Source of the DNA: Verrucomicrobiota bacterium
GTDB lineage: Bacteria > Verrucomicrobiota > Verrucomicrobiia > Limisphaerales > CANJSG01
Assembly: GCA_038209745.1 (NCBI GenBank)
Contig: JBBQXJ010000057.1
Span: 1-31,367, forward strand
Direction of reading: 5' to 3'
DNA length: 31,367 nt
The position numbers and the translations under genes were made by a program. Below are positions 3,121-31,367 of the stretch, piece after piece. A model generated the notes under the pieces. The model saw only the letters and a program-made list of their open reading frames with translations, was not told the DNA's origin and searched no databases. How positions within the stretch are numbered: the first letter of the stretch is position 1; each line of letters starts with the position of its first letter.

Positions 3121-3646
3121 TTACACGCGGCGCAAGCAGGGCCACGCCGGGCTGGCTGAACCTATCGACCGGAGAGTGGCAGCGACCACGGCAAAGCTGC
3201 TCGGGGACATCCATCCGCTGGCCATCCATCGCCGCAACAATCTGGTGCTCACCCTCATCCTGCTCGGAAAGCTCGAGGAAGCCCGCCAGATTCTCGCCGC
3301 GAACTGGCGTCTGAACGCTCCACCCCACGCCAACACCACCCCGCGCCTCGCCTTCCTCCGCCACCTCATCGCCCTGCTCGAATCGCAACCGAACACGCCC
3401 TTCCTCGGCCAGCTCAAAACCCTCCTCACCGGCCCCGAACTTCCCGTGGCCAGCGACGTGGCTATCCCGTAGGACATCGCCTACTTCATCGAGTAATTGA
3501 AACCCAAACTCGGCGAACCAGGCGCCGAATTCCTCGCCGCCCTCGTCGTTGCGCTGAACGACCGCGCGCGGCTGCCCGACCTCGACCGCTTCCCCGAATG
3601 GCGCAACCAGCCGCCCGTCCCGCTCGACACCCCGTGGCCTGATTAG
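3119..3646 (+). pseudogene. C-terminal TPR-like tail of the TIR-STAND protein, with two in-frame stops
   Basis: Same frame as 176-1537. It reads ...LLGDIHPLAIHRRNNLVLTLILLGKLEEARQIL...VAIP*DIAYFIE*LKPKLG...PLDTPWPD*, with internal TAG 3470-3472 and TAA 3494-3496 and terminal TAG 3644-3646. Confidence 0.7.
3283..3583 (+). repeat. ~300-bp direct repeat, copy 1 (TPR tail segment)
   Basis: ccgccagattctcgccgcgaac...ctgcccgacctc recurs, diverged, at 4262-4561. Confidence 0.9.
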
Positions 3647-4261: not shown

Positions 4262-4561
4262 CCGCCAGATTCTCGCCGCGAACGGCGTCTGAACGCTCCA
4301 CCCCACGCCAACACCACCCCACGCATCGCCTTCCTCCGCCACCTCATCGCCCTGCTCGAATCCCAACCGGACACGCCTTTCCTCGGCCAGCTCAAAACCC
4401 TCCTCACCGGCCCCGAACTTCCCGTGACGCCAAATGTGGCCGTCCCGTGCGACATCGCCTACTTCATCGGGCACCTGAAAGCGCAACTCGGGGCGCCGAA
4501 CGTGGAATTCCTCACCGCCCTCGTCGCCGCGCTGAACGACCACGCGAAGCTGCCCGACCTC
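4262..4561 (+). repeat. ~300-bp direct repeat, copy 2 (diverged TPR tail fragment)
   Basis: Aligns with 3283-3583. It has a 1-nt deletion (gaactggcgt vs gaacggcgt) and TGC/CAC where copy 1 has TAG/TAA. Confidence 0.9.
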
Positions 4562-4756
4562 TACCAGAACGCCGCAACCAAACCGCCCAACCGGCTATGC
4601 CAATGAGTTCACCAAGTTGTTTTCGCTTCTCCAGCCGTCCAAGCGCTTCATCTCCGTCAGCTACCACTTCTTGCTCCCTTCCGCCTTCAATGCCCCATTG
4701 CCGAGCGGGACATATCCCGGCACAAAGGTCGCGCGGACGAGAAGCCAGCCAACATC

Positions 4757-14469: not shown

Positions 14470-16011
14470 TCAGAAAGGTCGCGGCTGTTTGAACTGCTGG
14501 GGACGGGGGCGTCTGCGAGACGTGGTCAAGGCCGGCCGGAGATTGCCACCTTCCCGGTTGCCGTTGACCGATTCCCTCGTTTCCTGGGAACGCGGCGCGG
14601 ATGGGCGGCCGCCTCCGGGACGCTGGCCCGACCGATTGGGTTGCTGGGGCCGCCCTTGACCGCCGCCACGGGAGGGTCCGCCCTGGCGCCTTTGTCCACC
14701 ACCCTGTCCACCACCCTGTCCGCCACCTTGTCCGCCACCTTGTCCGCCACCTTGTCCGCCACCTTGTCCGCCACCTTGCGGGCGACGTCCACCTTGTCCC
14801 TGCTGCGATCTTTGCGGCGGCCTCTGCTGTTGGGTGGCCTCCGGTCGATTCGCCTGGGGATTTGGAGTAGAAGCGGCTCCATAGTCGAAGCCTTCGGCCC
14901 GTTTGCGGACAATTCCGCGGCCGATGAACTTCTCCAACGTCCGCAGTTCCTGTTGGTCCTCCGGCGTGACAAAGCTGATCGCGTCGCCCACCGCGTGGGC
15001 CCGGCCCGTGCGGCCGATGCGATGCACGTAGTCCTCGGCCTGCATCGGGAAATCGAAGTTCACCACGTGGGAAATTCCGTCCACGTCGATGCCCCGAGCC
15101 GCGATGTCCGTCGCCACCAGGACGCGGACCGCACCAGACTTGAAGTCTTTCAACGCCCGCAAGCGCTGGTTCTGCGACCGGTTGGAATGCAGCGTGCCGG
15201 TGCGGATGCCCTTGATCTCCAACTGCCGCGCGATGCGGTCGGCGCCGTGTTTCGTGCGGGAAAAGATCAGCACCATGTTCATGTCTGGCCCGTTCAGGAG
15301 ATGCGCTAGAAGCGCCGGCTTCAGATGCTTCGGCACCTCGTAGACCAACTGGGTGACGGTCTCGGCGGGGTTCGACCGCCGGCCGATCTGGATCGTCTTC
15401 GGTTGATGCTGGAACTCGTGCGTGAGCCGCTCGATCTCCGCGGAGAGCGTCGCCGAGAACATCAGCGTCTGGCGCTTCTGCGGCAATGATCGGACGATCT
15501 GCCGGATCGACGGGAGAAAACCCATGTCCAGCATCCGGTCCGCTTCGTCGAGGACGAGGTGCTGGAGATTCGAGAAGTCGGTGCAACGCTGGCCCATGAG
15601 GTCGAGCAAACGGCCCGGACAGGCGATCACGACATCCGTGCCGGCGCGCAATGCCCGAATCTGGGGACTCTCGCCCACGCCGCCGAAGACGGTCGCGACC
15701 GTCACCGTGAGGTGCTTCGCGTAGGCCAGCACATTCTCCTCGATCTGCACCACCAGCTCCCGGGTCGGGGCGACGATCAGCACCTTGGTTCCCCGGCGCT
15801 GCGATCCGGCCGCCACTGCGGCCATCTGGGAAAGGATCGGCAAAGTGAACGCCGCGGTCTTGCCGGTGCCCGTCTGGGCGATGCCGATGAGGTCGTGCCC
15901 GGCGAGCACATGGGGAATGGCGGCCGACTGGATCGGCGTGGGCTCGGTGTAGCCGGCCTCTTGGACCGCCTGCAAAATTCGGGCATCAAGCCCCAGACTG
16001 CTGAATGACAT
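14470..16011 (-). CDS. DEAD-box RNA helicase (RhlE-like) with G/Q/R-rich tail
   Basis: Q motif PTPIQ, AQTGTGKT, PTREL, DEAD, SAT, ARGID and HRIGRTGR; start MSFSSLGL at 16011. Confidence 0.95.
   Translation of the reverse strand: MSFSSLGLDARILQAVQEAGYTEPTPIQSAAIPHVLAGHDLIGIAQTGTGKTAAFTLPILSQMAAVAAGSQRRGTKVLIVAPTRELVVQIEENVLAYAKHLTVTVATVFGGVGESPQIRALRAGTDVVIACPGRLLDLMGQRCTDFSNLQHLVLDEADRMLDMGFLPSIRQIVRSLPQKRQTLMFSATLSAEIERLTHEFQHQPKTIQIGRRSNPAETVTQLVYEVPKHLKPALLAHLLNGPDMNMVLIFSRTKHGADRIARQLEIKGIRTGTLHSNRSQNQRLRALKDFKSGAVRVLVATDIAARGIDVDGISHVVNFDFPMQAEDYVHRIGRTGRAHAVGDAISFVTPEDQQELRTLEKFIGRGIVRKRAEGFDYGAASTPNPQANRPEATQQQRPPQRSQQGQGGRRPQGGGQGGGQGGGQGGGQGGGQGGGQGGGQRRQGGPSRGGGQGRPQQPNRSGQRPGGGRPSAPRSQETRESVNGNREGGNLRPALTTSRRRPRPQQFKQPRPF
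14692..14775. repeat. 7 x 12-bp coding tandem repeat (GGGQ)
   Basis: Units YTGTCCRCCACC in the helicase C-terminal tail. Confidence 0.95.
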
Positions 16012-27608: not shown

Positions 27609-28133
27609 TCAGACCCAGCCCAACGCGACATCGTTGGTGCCGGATTGGTTGAGCTGGCGACGCGGTCGATTCTCGGCCGGCCTTGCGGTTGACGCGGGCC
27701 CCGGACCTGGAGCCGCCTCCTCCGTCAGTCCCAGTTCCCGCATCAACGATTCCCGCGACGCCATCAGGTAGATCGCACCCTCGATCGTCGGTCCGTCCCG
27801 GAGGGAACCCCGCGCCACGCTCACTCCGGATTCCGCGCCATCGGCCAACGACCAGTTCAGACCCACCGCCAGCAGGACCAACGCCGCGACCGCCGCCCAC
27901 TCGGCCGGCACCGCTCGCAGCCAATCCGGAATCCATTCCAGCCAGCCCGCGAAGGGCCGCTGCTCCCGTCGAACCGTCTTCGGAGCCGACGACGCCGTTG
28001 CTGGTTCCTCCGCCAAAGCCCGCGCCAAGATCTCTGCCTTCCACCCGGCGGGCGGCGCCTTCAGCGGCGTCCCCAGTATCCGACGCTCCAGCGCGTCGGG
28101 TTCGATTGGGACATTGTGATCGTCGAAGTTCAT
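27609..28133 (-). CDS. Putative membrane-anchored anti-sigma factor
   Basis: Lies 10 nt downstream of the ECF sigma gene and has a single TM helix (WAAVAALVLLAVGLNW). Confidence 0.65.
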   Translation of the reverse strand: MNFDDHNVPIEPDALERRILGTPLKAPPAGWKAEILARALAEEPATASSAPKTVRREQRPFAGWLEWIPDWLRAVPAEWAAVAALVLLAVGLNWSLADGAESGVSVARGSLRDGPTIEGAIYLMASRESLMRELGLTEEAAPGPGPASTARPAENRPRRQLNQSGTNDVALGWV

Positions 28134-28143
28134 GGGCGTTTTC

Positions 28144-28656
28144 CTAGCGGATCTCGTCGTAGAGAGGACGCAGCCGCGTCCGAAGTTTGTCTAATCCGTA
28201 GCGGTAGCGGCTGGCCGCCGTGTTGGGCGACAGATCGAGCGTCTCCGCGATCTGCTCGAAGGTCAGGCGCTCCCACAGCTTCAGATGCACCACCGCGCGC
28301 TGGTCTTCGGGCAATTCTCCCAACGCCTCCGACAGCTCGGCCCGAAACGTCGCTTCGTCCGGATCATCCGTTCCGGCGAAGACCCCCAGAGTCTCCGTCT
28401 GGAAGACATCGTTCCGCCGATTCCGCGTTTCCCGACGCCGGGCGGAATCCACCACCAGATTGTGCGTCCAGCGCAGGAGAAAAGACCGGGGTTCCCGCAC
28501 ACCCTCCAGCGCGTCCGGCTGCCGGGCCAACCGCACGAACACCTCCTGCAGCACATCCCGGGCGTCGGCCTCCGAGCGGGTCAGATTGAGCGCGAAGGCA
28601 TAGACCGGCCCGGAATGGGCGTCGTAGAGCGCTGCGATGTCGACCGGGTCGGGCAT
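28144..28656 (-). CDS. ECF RNA polymerase sigma-70 factor
   Basis: Region 2 DARDVLQEVF and region 4 LPEDQRAVVHLK...TFEQIAETL...NTAASRYRYG. Confidence 0.92.
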   Translation of the reverse strand: MPDPVDIAALYDAHSGPVYAFALNLTRSEADARDVLQEVFVRLARQPDALEGVREPRSFLLRWTHNLVVDSARRRETRNRRNDVFQTETLGVFAGTDDPDEATFRAELSEALGELPEDQRAVVHLKLWERLTFEQIAETLDLSPNTAASRYRYGLDKLRTRLRPLYDEIR

Positions 28657-28865
28657 TCGGATGGTTCGACCAAGAAGACGCGGCGAACTCACGCATTTGT
28701 CTAGAGCTTGTCTCCGAAACCTCGGCGCCACCTCCCTTGGACCTCGCTCCCGATCCGGCGATCTCCGCACGGGTCAGCCCGCATCCAGTGATCAGGGACT
28801 CTTCGCCAACCGAAAGCCCGGGGTGTGCCATCGGGTCCGCTCCGGCCTATGCCTCGACCGGGCCG

Positions 28866-29345
28866 TCATGGATCCGCCAAGATCTTCTTCAGCCGCTCAA
28901 CTTCAGCCGGCGGCATCTGTTTGAAGAGCGCCTTGAGCGTGCGATTGCCGACCATCTTGCCGTCCCGCCGGTAGAGCCAGTCTGAGATGTCCCCCTCCGG
29001 TATCTCGAGCCGGTCGCCCAGCTTCACGCTGGCGACCGTGTCCGGATCGTTGTTGATCGTGCCCATCGTCTTCCCGTCCCGCCGCTCGATGTCGGTCACC
29101 CAAAAGTGCTCCACCCCTTTCTTGTCCGTGATCCTGACCTTGAGAGCAAAGTCAGTCTCGCCGCGCTCTCGCTTCTCAAAAATCTGCCAGAACTTTGGAA
29201 GCGTGGCGCGCGCCTCGGAAATGGCCGCCGTCATCTCCGGGTCGTCCTCCGCGACGCCGACCACCTTGTCCCGTTGCGAGCACGCCGGCAGCGACGTCAG
29301 CAGCGCTGCGACCAGCACCAGTCCGATTCGTGGCTTGCGATTCAT
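28866..29345 (-). CDS. DUF2314/YegJ-like lipoprotein, probable degenerate cassette gene
   Basis: Lipobox-like LPAC; DDPEMTAAISEARATL, EHFWV, GTINNDP and ISDWLY...MVGNRT motifs. Confidence 0.85.
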   Translation of the reverse strand: MNRKPRIGLVLVAALLTSLPACSQRDKVVGVAEDDPEMTAAISEARATLPKFWQIFEKRERGETDFALKVRITDKKGVEHFWVTDIERRDGKTMGTINNDPDTVASVKLGDRLEIPEGDISDWLYRRDGKMVGNRTLKALFKQMPPAEVERLKKILADP

Positions 29346-29356
29346 TTTGACGCGGT

Positions 29357-29481
29357 TCGGATGAAAAAATGAGACACCGCCAACCGGCAGCGGTACTACG
29401 ATTTTGTGAAGCCTGTGGAAGTGCCGCCCATGACTCAACGGCCCGCCGGGGTGGCGGTTTGCCTCGCATGTCTGGTTCGGC
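29357..29481 (-). mobile_element. Degenerate attC site
   Basis: The minus strand begins GCCGAAC and has an imperfect inner inverted repeat (gagacaccgccaaccgg / ccggggtggcggtttgcctc). The R' box is eroded. It lies just upstream of the DUF2314 ATG. Confidence 0.5.
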
Positions 29482-29503
29482 CTTGCTTGCCGGGACAACC
29501 AAA

Positions 29504-29778
29504 CGACACCCGGTCGAACCAAGTCCTCTCTGCAAGAAGATCGGAACACAACGAAGCCCCTCCGCAAGGAAGGACGGAAAGGAAAGAGCTTTTAGCGAGA
29601 CCGCGAGCGCGAGAACCCGAAACAGCCGGAAGCCTCTGTCGTCAGCGGAGACAAACCGCTGCCGCGCGCGCCTCCGGCCGTGTGCCAACACCTCCACTGA
29701 CGCTCCGCTCCGCGCGGCGAAACCCTCACCGAATAAAACCTGCCGGACCCAGCCTCACCCGTTGACAAACCTCATAGG
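29504..29778 (+). mobile_element. Solo right end of an IS110/IS1111-type element (structured non-coding region)
   Basis: 29504-29603 matches 31268-31367 at 97 of 100 positions, and that copy follows the IS110 transposase remnant. It ends TTGACAAACCTCATAGG, abutting half of an attC. Confidence 0.7.
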
Positions 29779-29799
29779 CGCTGCAGCGCATGGGTAGGC
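29779..29799 (-). mobile_element. Truncated attC (R''/L'' half only)
   Basis: cgctgcagcgcatgggtaggc resembles the matching end of attC 30074-30166 (agatgcagcgcagggttagc) and lies 25 nt after the cassette ORF stop. Confidence 0.65.
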
Positions 29800-29824
29800 G
29801 TTGCGGATGTTGGGAACGATGTGC

Positions 29825-30043
29825 TCACTCGATAAGCATATTTGATGGAGCTTTGTCGGTCCAATAAAGCTCTACGTCGGCGACTCCGGTTGCATCGGTG
29901 AGGTCGTCGCGGCGGAAATGGAAGTGACTGCGGTGCTGCTGGAGAGCCTGAAGTCGCTCGATAAGCAGGACGATGTCCGAATCGGTGAGACCAACTTGGA
30001 TGCCGAACCATCCTGTCTTGAAGTCTTCGAGTGCGACGTTCAT
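29825..30043 (-). CDS. Integron cassette hypothetical protein (72 aa)
   Basis: A single lower-GC ORF filling the space between two attC sites. Confidence 0.7.
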   Translation of the reverse strand: MNVALEDFKTGWFGIQVGLTDSDIVLLIERLQALQQHRSHFHFRRDDLTDATGVADVELYWTDKAPSNMLIE

Positions 30044-30073
30044 TTGCTTTCAATCATGGATGGCGCGAAGGCC

Positions 30074-30166
30074 GCCTAACGACCCAAGCTCAGCGACGGC
30101 GGCCACGAGGCGCGCCGATTGCAACCGCGATGGCCCGCCGCCGTTAGATGCAGCGCAGGGTTAGCG
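30074..30166 (-). mobile_element. attC site (93 bp, complete)
   Basis: The minus strand reads CGCTAAC...GTTAGGC with an internal imperfect palindrome (cggcggcgggcc / ggccgccgtcg). Confidence 0.88.
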
Positions 30167-30294
30167 AACCAACCGCCTCGAAGGCGGAGCAATGACGTGA
30201 AGAGCTTTCTGGCAGGGTTCCACTGTCTGTCAGGCACTTGCGCGACCAGCTCTTCAGGAGGCGCCGTTCGTGGATTCGGTTGCAGCATGGAAAG

Positions 30295-30669
30295 TCAGTA
30301 ATGCCGTGACTGAGCGACTACCTGAAACTCGTCCTCATACAATATCATTCCTGGTCGTTCGGTTCTCAGCATCTGCACTGGTTGGTCGTATTGCTCAAGG
30401 ATGGCGATGAGGTCTCTGAACTTGGAAATCATGTCTCGGGCGGAAGCCTTGAACCATGAAATTGCGTCCGGCGACCAATCCTTTCCGTTGAACGGCGGAC
30501 AAGGAAGGTGTGCGTTGAGCCACGAAAAGATCTCTTCGACATGTTCAACTTCGTAAGCGGGGAGCTGTCCTCTGTCCCTCAGTAACCGAAGAGAGGTAAC
30601 AACGCCGGTCTGATGCTTCGGTTCCTCGCGGTTCGTGCCGACTACGAAGCGAATGTAAGTGCTTTTCAC
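30295..30669 (-). CDS. Integron cassette hypothetical protein (124 aa)
   Basis: GTG start 17 nt after the GTTAGGC of the upstream attC; lower GC; protein-like sequence ending PGMILYEDEFQVVA. Confidence 0.8.
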   Translation of the reverse strand: MKSTYIRFVVGTNREEPKHQTGVVTSLRLLRDRGQLPAYEVEHVEEIFSWLNAHLPCPPFNGKDWSPDAISWFKASARDMISKFRDLIAILEQYDQPVQMLRTERPGMILYEDEFQVVAQSRHY

Positions 30670-30686
30670 GGGAGACGTGACAAGTC

Positions 30687-30764
30687 GCCTAACGACCCAA
30701 GCTCAGCGACGGCGGCCACGAGGCGCGCCGAGTGCAACCGCGATGGCCCGCCGCCGTTAGATGC
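30687..30764 (-). mobile_element. attC site interrupted by an IS left end
   Basis: Matches 30074-30151 at 77 of 78 positions, then diverges abruptly into catgaagggttgagg. Confidence 0.85.
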
Positions 30765-31367
30765 CATGAAGGGTTGAGGAGCCTGGCCGACGGGGCCAAG
30801 CGTTGGTTGATGAAAACATATCTGCTCCGACCCTTCATGACACCCGCGACTCAATCCTCCTCCCCCGCCGTCGGCAAGCCCGCAGTGCCGCCCAAGCAGC
30901 CCCTGCTCTCGCCGGTCGTCGATCCGACGCGGCCCCGGCTGTGCCTAGGGCTGGACGTGCATCTGGAGTCCATCGTGGCGGTGGCCCAGCGGGACCAGCG
31001 GGACCACGGGGGCCGCAGGCACCGAGGAAGTTCACCCGGATCCTTCGGCTGGGGCGGCTCCTTCACCCGCGAACAGATCGGCAGCTCCACCGGCTGTTGT
31101 CCCGGCGAACACAGTTCCGGAGGGAAACGGCGCATCGGCGCCACCGACCGGATGGGCCACAAGGCTGCGCCTTGACGCCAGTGCGCTGCGCGCGAAGCGC
31201 AGTGGCCCTCCGCTAGGAGCAGGAGCAGGAGCGGGTGCGGGACGATCTCCCGACACGATGAGCGCGGCGACACCCGGTCGAACCAAGTTCTCTCTGCAAG
31301 AAGATCGGAACACAGCGAAGCCCCTCCGCAAGGAAGGGCGGAAAGGAAAGAGCTTTTAGCGAGACCG
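30765..31367 (+). mobile_element. Internally deleted IS110-family (IS1111-like) element, running off the window end
   Basis: Short left end, transposase remnant, and a right-end sequence repeated at 29504. Confidence 0.75.
30810..31175 (+). pseudogene. IS110-family transposase remnant
   Basis: The N-terminal DEDD motif LCLGLDVH is joined almost directly to the C-terminal-domain motif FTREQIGSSTGCCPGEHSSGGKRRIG; the middle and end are deleted. Confidence 0.82.

Follow-up and report, generated by a model that had tools for sequence, protein, structure and literature searches.

Insertion sequences (IS) of the IS1111 type, including the attC-targeting ISKpn4 and ISPst6, have been described as producing a seekRNA of 70-100 nt from the non-coding region downstream of the transposase gene, with the top-strand match lying 5' of the bottom-strand match and with long forms (145-170 nt) whose role is unsettled (excerpt of PMC11187229). 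ISPpu9 forms circles holding the transposase gene alone, the gene with ssr9, or ssr9 alone, and solo ssr9 copies exist (excerpt of PMC12288879). Here, we analyzed a stretch of 31,367 nt from a Verrucomicrobiota genome (referred to as the window), at the end of which an earlier note had recognized an IS110/IS1111-type element and had proposed that positions 29504-29778, the flagged stretch, encode a guide RNA specific for the local attC family. The IS1111-attC group is reportedly the subject of Tetu and Holmes in 2008 and of Post and Hall in 2009. The transposases of ISPst6, ISKpn4 and ISPa25 are at least ~46% identical to one another, and the IS1111 group is recognized by subterminal inverted repeats of ~7-17 bp that have terminal extensions, by a longer non-coding region on the downstream side of the transposase gene, and by a transposase of ~330-350 aa that bears the motif GL-P----S(t)G and clusters with IS1111 in a tree.

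Our reading, which as a whole we hold with a probability of about 85%, is that the element is an IS110-family IS with an IS1111-type layout, belonging to a Verrucomicrobiota lineage and aimed at attC-like sites; that the window carries two relics of one such IS (copy A and copy B), which invaded a short integron-type cassette array twice; and that 29504-29778 is the DNA tail of the element and not its guide, the guide RNA being intact nowhere in the window. Throughout, IS positions are coordinates on a full-length relative (G005:C212), G000 is the genome of the window, C57 is the window's contig and the other C numbers given for G000 are further contigs of that genome.

The full-length relative was found in a genome of the same genus, as a copy about 1 kb longer, placed in an attC-like site and carrying an open reading frame (ORF) of 394 aa. 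This ORF passes the cut-off of NF033542, "IS110 family RNA-guided transposase" of NCBIfam (178.7 bits, cut-off 140), as well as that of PF02371 (63.4 bits, cut-off 21.3), and stays under that of PF01548 (22.5 bits, cut-off 29). Among solved structures, its only relative is the IS621 transposase (8WT6, E 9e-4). The protein was used to retrieve a family sample of 43 loci at 65-100% identity, almost all from metagenome-assembled genomes of Verrucomicrobiota, and both IS ends could be located in 30 of these, giving an element length of 1648-1891 bp. The complete genome from which loci L029-L033 come has six identical copies. These 30 two-ended relatives bear out the assignment to an IS110/IS1111-type element that targets attC-like sites. 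The transposase ORF of the family has 372-394 aa, with the motif GCCPGEHSSG, i.e. G--P----SG minus the L. The leader before the transposase gene measures 0-70 nt in 28 of the 30, the other two (L063, 173 nt, and L060, 197 nt) having short longest ORFs, while the non-coding DNA 3' of the stop codon measures ~490 nt (459-552 nt in 28 of the 30; 269 and 620 nt in two elements in which the longest ORF differs). Left junctions read ...TTAGATG(C/T) followed by CATGATGGGTTGA, and right junctions read TTGACAACCCTCATAGG followed by NGC and then the attC 3' half. At the left end, ATGA(T)GGGTTG begins 1-2 nt inside the element, and at the right end, CAACCCTCAT stops 5-8 nt short of the terminus. When the left end was compared by eye with the reverse complement of the right end (ATGAGGGTTG) in the 30 pairs of junctions, the two were seen to form a subterminal inverted repeat of ~10/11 with one indel, as in the IS1111 group.

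A tblastn search against 72,556 plasmid records returned 663 matches, all below 60% identity (23-46% in the rows listed), the best near-full-length one reaching 31.5% and the nearest named elements, ISEc45 and ISSso6, 27-28%; one match on a Klebsiella plasmid was inspected and is not within an integron. The lineage is previously uncharacterized and distant from ISKpn4 and ISPst6, whose kind is already experimentally known. The G000 assembly (92% complete, 140 contigs) has no match to PF01548 or PF02371, and the window copies encode no intact IS110 transposase, only fragments in copy B (PF02371, E 0.064).

Within the non-coding DNA of the family, the guide RNA region is the first ~245 nt after the transposase stop. 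Short matches to an element's own flanks recur there at two places. Measured from the right end, the 8 nt following CATAGG(N) reappear as their reverse complement at ~405-415 nt, and the left flank is repeated in the same sense at ~375 nt. A further segment, ~300 nt from the right terminus, matches that terminus. On the full-length element, the target loop thus spans IS 1250-1340 with guides at 1277 and 1309, the terminus-matching segment is at 1384 and the second domain ends at ~1437. When 31 distinct proximal regions were aligned (alignment A1, mean column identity 75%), the consensus fold reached -67.7 kcal/mol, with an outer stem (columns 14-34/81-99) enclosing an internal loop and an apical hairpin (47-54/61-67). 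The first target segment lies on the 5' strand of the internal loop and the second on its 3' strand, and the second domain holds a covarying hairpin (129-138/148-158) followed by the invariant CGGATAGGAGCTGG. In A1, 97.5% of cells are paired vs 89.8% in shuffled alignments, and 17 pairs are changed on both sides vs 10.8, with none of 500 shuffles equalling the observed value in either case; in a control in which the partner was slid by 1-3 columns, 36-48% of cells pair.

The loop segments also follow the targets. The 33 elements with both flanks present 15 distinct guide pairs, in which the right-side guide (8 nt) scores 7.47/8 against its own flank vs 5.22/8 against the flanks of other elements, and the left-side guide (10 nt) scores 8.47/10 vs 6.88/10; the guide-flank sums were equalled in 0 of 10000 permutations. 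Examples on the right side are GCCGGAGC with GCTCCGGC, ACTGGAGC with GCTCCAGT and GCTGCACT with AGTGCAGC, while the left guides GCATTAGATG, ACTTTAGATG and CATTCAGATG each match their own flank at 10/10. The family includes loop-segment pairs of the GCTGCAGC/GGTTAGATG type and of the GCCGGAGC/CGGTTAGAAG type, which go with two attC subtypes. The RNA triplet AGC or AGT in turn covaries with the terminus NGC or NGT (T-T in 5/5, C-C in 30/31). As read from sequence, a predicted RNA whose loop segments pair with both target strands and covary with the target is a property of this family. The view of the earlier note that the family encodes a guide RNA downstream of its transposase gene is therefore upheld by the covariation with the flanks, and the check that it suggested, i.e. 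collecting full-length copies and looking for covariation of loop segments, gave a positive answer in the proximal region, the right-end stretch being without a guide loop.

A covariance model of the first (target-loop) domain, R1, was used to extend the sample. R1 scores 106 bits on the full-length copy, and when 151 genomes of the order were sampled, 8 had matches. Four of the elements that were new and not duplicates have their right junction in the locus; three of these follow the guide rule, one of the three with a new guide pair (GCTGGCGT, 8/8; GCCTTAGATG, 10/10), and the fourth scores 5/8. A fifth new element sits in a locus without a flank. In the window, the best R1 match has 14.5 bits (E 0.18) and falls in an unrelated place, and the spot expected in copy B gives 10.6 bits (E 1.4, whole-window search). 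R1 has no significant match in the G000 assembly (best E 0.73), and Rfam 15 at gathering thresholds has none in the window.

Two G000 loci, C29:50636-50921 and C91:17061-17336 (L081 and L092), carry the second RNA domain behind a different, longer 5' domain, which may be a retargeted or degenerate guide. They read ...CCCGTAGTTCTTTTC...GAGCTGATGATGG, where the rest of the family reads ...CCGTAGCTGCAGC...CGGTTAGATGG. Neither has a transposase gene upstream, and the C29 copy still finishes with an ordinary right end placed in half of an attC. Among the 151 genomes of the order, the variant part was matched only twice, in both cases partially.

Together, these features suggest a mechanism. The intact element consists of a short left end, the transposase gene, ~490 nt of non-coding DNA and subterminal inverted repeats, and an RNA would most likely be made from the first ~245 nt past the stop codon. 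The first domain of this RNA (~90 nt; stem, internal loop and hairpin) would offer a loop 5' strand that complements the top strand where it crosses the right junction, and a loop 3' strand that, as it is identical to the left flank GGTTAGATG, should pair with the bottom strand; the CGGATAGGAGCTGG of the second domain would match the right terminus of the IS itself. The transposase would bind this RNA, and the complex would bring the joined IS ends to attC and recombine them by strand exchange at the shared T(G) core, ~10 nt ahead of the GTTRRRY core.

The end of the window can now be compared with this family. It consists of a right-end fragment (29504 to ~29783), an attC-like half, two minus-strand ORFs and an IS left end, with the following features:

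29504-29783, plus strand: copy A, an IS right-end relic equal to IS 1432-1689 plus the shared core TG, without transposase gene, target loop or donor loop.
29667-29716, plus strand: conserved stem, CGCG (29667-29670) with CGCG (29713-29716), enclosing a conserved CTCCG...GCGCTCC block.
29762-29767, plus strand: TTGACA box, of which TTGAC is invariant (A2 columns T269-C273; A2 is described below).
29768-29781, plus strand: right subterminal inverted repeat and terminal extension, AACCTCATAGG followed by CGC; donor half-site matching the RNA segment CGGATAGGAGCTGG.
29782-29800, plus strand: attC-like 3' half, TGCAGCGCATGG and then a degenerate R' core GTAGGC, in orientation and sequence as 30149-30166.
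29825-30043, minus strand: cassette ORF of 72 aa, with no significant family match (its sole Pfam match, E 0.035, is below its cut-off).
30074-30166, plus strand: intact attC-like site, GCCTAAC ... GTTAGATGCAGCGCAGG GTTAGCG, an example of an uninterrupted target.
30295-30669, minus strand: cassette ORF of 124 aa, without a family match.
30687-30764, plus strand: attC-like 5' part, cut by the IS left end after GTTAGATGC and 94% identical to 30073-30162 up to the break.
30765-31039, plus strand: copy B, left end and start of the transposase gene, with the LCLGLDVHLESIVAVAQRD motif around the first catalytic Asp (IS 1-279, 75%).
31043-31160, plus strand: copy B, fragment of the transposase C-terminal domain (...IGSSTGCCPGEHSSGGKRR...; IS 861-978, 80%; the weak PF02371 match given above).
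31161-31226, plus strand: copy B, 66 unalignable nt replacing 410 bp, a gap between blastn pieces with a GGAGCA-type hexamer expansion.
31227-31367, plus strand: copy B, last ~40 nt of the second RNA domain and then the start of the distal non-coding DNA, cut by the contig end.

The 97/100 identity of 29504-29603 with 31268-31367, which the earlier note had reported, was confirmed with a repeat finder, as was, from the sequence, the interruption of an attC by an IS left end at 30764/30765. By the repeat finder, the two attC-like copies, 30073-30162 and 30686-30775, share 94% identity across 90 nt, and the second departs from the first after GTTAGATGC (30756-30764), with CATGAAGGGTTGAGG from 30765. 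On the other side, the right end ...TTGACAAACCTCATAGG stops at 29778 and CGCTGCAGCGCATGGGTAGGCG comes next. The junction of the right end with an attC half near 29778, which had also been proposed, is thus real, although the half site at 29779 is not complementary, as had been said, but is oriented in the same way as the intact site. As GTTAGATGC occupies 30143-30151 and TGCAGCGCA 30149-30157 of the intact site, the two junctions overlap on the 3 nt TGC (30149-30151); the earlier note had the same place, within a wider window of ~6 nt. Comparison with the family puts the true right terminus 3-5 nt right of 29778, the sequence being ...CATAGG CGC plus the shared TG (29779-29783), and the terminal NGC triplet moves with the IS and covaries with its RNA.

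The deletion of the transposase, as claimed, was found in copy B, which has lost ~581 bp (IS 280-860) and ~410 bp (IS 979-1388), ~1 kb overall, and with them most of the transposase gene. The 410 bp missing at 31161-31226 comprise the 3' end of the transposase gene, the target loop in full and the greater part of the second RNA domain, while 31227-31358 matches IS 1389-1519 at 84% (blastn). The hexamer expansion of copy B, GGAGCAGGAGCAGGAGCGGG at 31195-31225, stands where relatives carry an invariant GGATAGGAGCTGG segment. Copy A is 73% identical to the full-length element over 295 nt (blastn) and 95% identical to G000:C29:50922-51196.

Copy A, which retains only the last ~275 nt of the element (IS 1432-1689), is located entirely 3' of the guide RNA. 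The guide belongs to DNA that is missing from both copies, and the flagged stretch preserves no more than the tail of the element. The proposal that 29504-29778 encodes the guide consequently fails on position: the target segments lie ~375-415 nt from the right terminus, and copy A starts at IS 1432. Nor was the complementarity to target and donor that this proposal calls for seen above chance, as the longest match of 29504-29758 to the target was equalled by 223 of 300 dinucleotide shuffles and that to the donor junction by 85 of 300. In the same test on the full-length copy, the proximal region was equalled by 10/300 (target) and 6/300 (donor) shuffles, and the distal region by 263/300 and 293/300.

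For structure, copy A was aligned with 31 other right ends (alignment A2, n=32). A2 has a mean column identity of 50%, and its consensus fold reaches -5.4 kcal/mol with 15 pairs over 359 columns. The 29667-29716 stem corresponds to A2 columns 235-238/281-284 (RNAalifold), with compensatory changes in 11 and 6 of the 32 sequences at its two middle pairs. Of the two hairpins that the earlier note had pointed out, both are present in the minimum-energy fold of 29640-29735, a fold that is equalled by 16 of 200 shuffles; gccgcgcg/cgcgcggc is conserved in the family, as a 4-bp core only, and cagcgg/ccgctg is missing from the consensus structure of the 32 right ends. The last ~20 nt of the right end are nearly invariant, with the right inverted repeat within CCTCATAGG. 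In the joined ends, counting the spacing, TTGACA stands 17 nt from CATGAT of the left end (CATGAA in the window copies), and it could act as the -35 box of a promoter formed on end joining, as in relatives (excerpt of PMC11187229). The flagged stretch holds donor-side DNA, namely the inverted repeat, the RNA-read terminal nucleotides and the TTGACA box; its other ~230 nt are a poorly conserved spacer with one small covarying stem.

We consider it very improbable that 29504-29778 itself encodes a bridge or seek RNA for this attC family, or a necessary part of one. The stretch is 95-97% identical between copies in G000 and has the one family-wide stem with compensatory changes, and a 3' extension of the guide is conceivable in view of the long seekRNA forms (145-170 nt) of PMC11187229, in its excerpt. 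Against this, both target-matching segments and the terminus-matching segment lie upstream of IS 1432, the complementarity of the stretch is at chance level, and the distal fold and identity are far from the -67.7 kcal/mol and 75% of the proximal region.

Several points weigh against our reading. The right-side guide has exceptions to the guide rule: L068 and its duplicate L105 score 3/8, L061 6/8 and L104 5/8. In the largest subfamily (right flank GGCTCCGGCGAC), the left guide is GTTAGAAG and the flank GTTAGATG, a mismatch that leaves the exact core ambiguous; no uninterrupted GGCTCCGGCGAC-type target is present among the flanks collected, and a loose pattern search of the genome for such a site gave 128 matches, mostly chance and uninformative. 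For the left IS end, the candidate guide segments, located in the second domain on its 5' strand, show no covariation with that end. The distal region has blocks of conservation and a 4-bp stem that covaries, so that it may form part of a longer transcript. Contigs of the G000 assembly end at IS copies, and intact ones may be present in the genome without having been assembled. Finally, transcription of the guide RNA, the RNA ends and binding by the transposase are predictions drawn from the DNA.

The target sites show features of attC, and the arrays of G000 are groups of such sites for which no integrase was detected. An attC site has the cores RYYYAAC ... GTTRRRY around an imperfect palindrome of ~60-140 nt and lies between short ORFs. 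The cores of the intact site in the window, GCCTAAC ... GTTAGCG, are one position off this consensus, and a sister site on C86 has GTTAGGC. Positions 30074-30166 fold end to end as an imperfect hairpin, with an energy no better than that of shuffles. The attC-like sites alternate with the 72- and 124-aa ORFs, and related copies are found on six further G000 contigs. For the family, left flanks end in AGATG plus C or T in 29 of the 33 listed and right junctions share a common pattern, the copies thus occupying one position and one orientation within attC-like sites, as in the IS1111-attC group. The strict core consensus near the insertions is found for R'' in 14/33, for R' in 16/33 and for both in 7/33. 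No integron integrase passes in G000 (best TIGR02249 match 95.6 bits, cut-off 265), and IntI is present in one of four other host genomes (435.9 bits), on a contig that differs from that of the IS copies. A weak integron-integrase match at G000:C54:31689-31811 (21.3 bits, E 4e-4, one in-frame TGA, first 42 model positions), at a distance of ~600 nt from the right-end relic of C54, may represent a degraded intI.

G000 has six right termini in an attC context (C22, C29, C33, C54, C57 and C80; sites outside the window at C22:~26256, C29:~51180, C33:~29212, C54:~31056 and, on the minus strand, C80:~683) and three left ones (C36, C57 and C80; C36:~7324 and C80:~127, both on the minus strand), which are cut at differing points and are 76-95% identical. 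The right-end relics, of ~37 to ~560 nt, lie between ordinary chromosomal genes and the attC half that opens a short cassette array; on C57 and C80, an IS left end closes the array on the opposite side. Exact-match right termini number 6, 2, 4 and 0 in the four other host genomes, plus one site with one mismatch and one with two, and those of G007 and G008 equal in number the full-length copies retrieved (6 and 2).

This distribution bears on two further explanations. One holds that the distal segment is a separate hitch-hiking module, similar to ssr9, which would explain the transposase-less copies. It draws on the precedent of ISPpu9, with its ssr9-only circles and solo ssr9 copies (PMC12288879, excerpt), on the fact that copy A begins precisely where the RNA domain ends on its 3' side, and on the six right vs three left termini in G000, where there is no transposase. 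Yet other relics are cut elsewhere (C54 keeps ~190 nt, C80 and C33 ~100 nt and C22 ~37 nt), what lies left of 29504 is an ordinary promoter region and not an attC half, with no left-end-like box at 29504, and the other host genomes have few exact-match right termini, which in G007 and G008 equal the full-length copies retrieved in number. We rate this explanation slightly below the one that places the guide in the flagged stretch. The other takes the conserved sequence for a native boundary element of the cassette array, attI-like or a terminal site, rather than an IS end. The sequence does lie repeatedly between chromosomal genes and the first attC half in G000 (C57, C33, C54, C80 and C22), a genome in which neither a transposase nor an integron integrase is found above cut-off; however, in the 30 full-length elements this sequence forms the 3' end of a unit that bears a transposase and that has a matching left end in the other half of the same attC. 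Moreover, the point at which identity is lost toward the left varies from copy to copy, which is the pattern expected of relics. This is the least probable of the alternatives considered, and relics of one IS remain our reading of both copies.

Among the sequencing runs recorded as containing the stretch, none is listed as RNA, and four were compared with the window as contigs. A contig of run X1 spans 29300-29533 without difference, reaching 30 nt past 29503/29504, 1 nt below the bridging threshold. In runs X3 and X4, the DNA preceding 29504 is normal IS interior. Contigs of X3 and X4, from other sediment and soil metagenomes, cover the IS parts (29504-29782 and 30749-31300) at a summed depth of ~60-980 and the adjacent chromosomal part at 0-27, values that are sums over contigs and not copy numbers; the high depth on the IS parts suggests many related copies or hosts.

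The minus-strand regions 27609-28770 and 28866-29346 hold an extracytoplasmic function (ECF)-sigma-like ORF with a downstream ORF, both named by eye, and, next to these, a DUF2314 lipoprotein gene (PF10077, 90 bits) that directly abuts copy A and whose promoter region starts where the IS relic ends. Elsewhere in the window, a 12-nt motif resembling CTGTCCGCCACC is repeated in tandem at 14680-14790, giving seven overlapping units of 39 nt, presumably within coding sequence of low complexity. Positions 3306-3587 and 4284-4565 are direct repeats of 282 nt, which share 87% identity at a spacing of 978 nt and probably represent paralogous segments of genes.

As the decayed tail of an IS, the flagged stretch is unremarkable in itself. 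What is of use is the family: its natural guide pairs amount to a natural reprogramming series of the kind used to derive the seekRNA and bridge RNA rules, in a phylum and on a branch remote from the elements studied so far. For annotation, as the guide is transposase-proximal in IS1111-type elements with right ends of ~500 nt, a conserved right terminus alone should not be taken as evidence of a guide. Each right-end relic keeps the donor half-site of the IS fused to an attC half, and on C57 and C80 a right-end relic and a left end enclose a block of cassettes. One could speculate that the relics are not inert, with RNA-guided cassette shuffling, and that the lineage is a second, independent invention of attC targeting; we think this combination unlikely. 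If it were true, a full-length element supplying transposase and RNA could recombine relic junctions with attC or with each other, and cassette blocks could be moved, deleted or fixed with no need of an integron integrase, none having been detected in these arrays. Such shuffling would account for the survival of six right ends at array edges. A second, independent invention would, for its part, have come with at least ten natural retargetings among attC subtypes.

In comparison with known systems, the element resembles the IS1111-attC group (ISKpn4, ISPst6, ISPa21 and ISPa25) in its single position and orientation in cassette attC sites, its long non-coding region downstream of the transposase gene and its subterminal inverted repeats, and differs from that group, which is found in Gammaproteobacteria with transposases of ~340 aa, in its Verrucomicrobiota host and its transposase of ~372-394 aa. 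Like the seekRNAs of ISKpn4 and ISPst6, as given in the excerpt of PMC11187229, the predicted RNA would be ~80-90 nt long with the top-strand-complementary segment 5' of the bottom-strand one. With IS621 and the IS110-group bridge RNA (Durrant et al. 2024, PMC11208160, excerpt; 8WT6), it shares the DEDD/RuvC-type recombinase family, one loop reading both target strands, a second part reading the donor and a short shared core, while the RNA is encoded in the right end and not the left, the order of the target segments is reversed and the inverted repeats are long. With ISPpu9, it has in common that it belongs to the IS110 family, that a non-coding module lies downstream and that downstream sequence also occurs in the genome as solo copies without a transposase; unlike the discrete, circle-produced modules of ISPpu9 (PMC12288879, excerpt), the solo pieces here are cut at varying points, in a decay-like manner.

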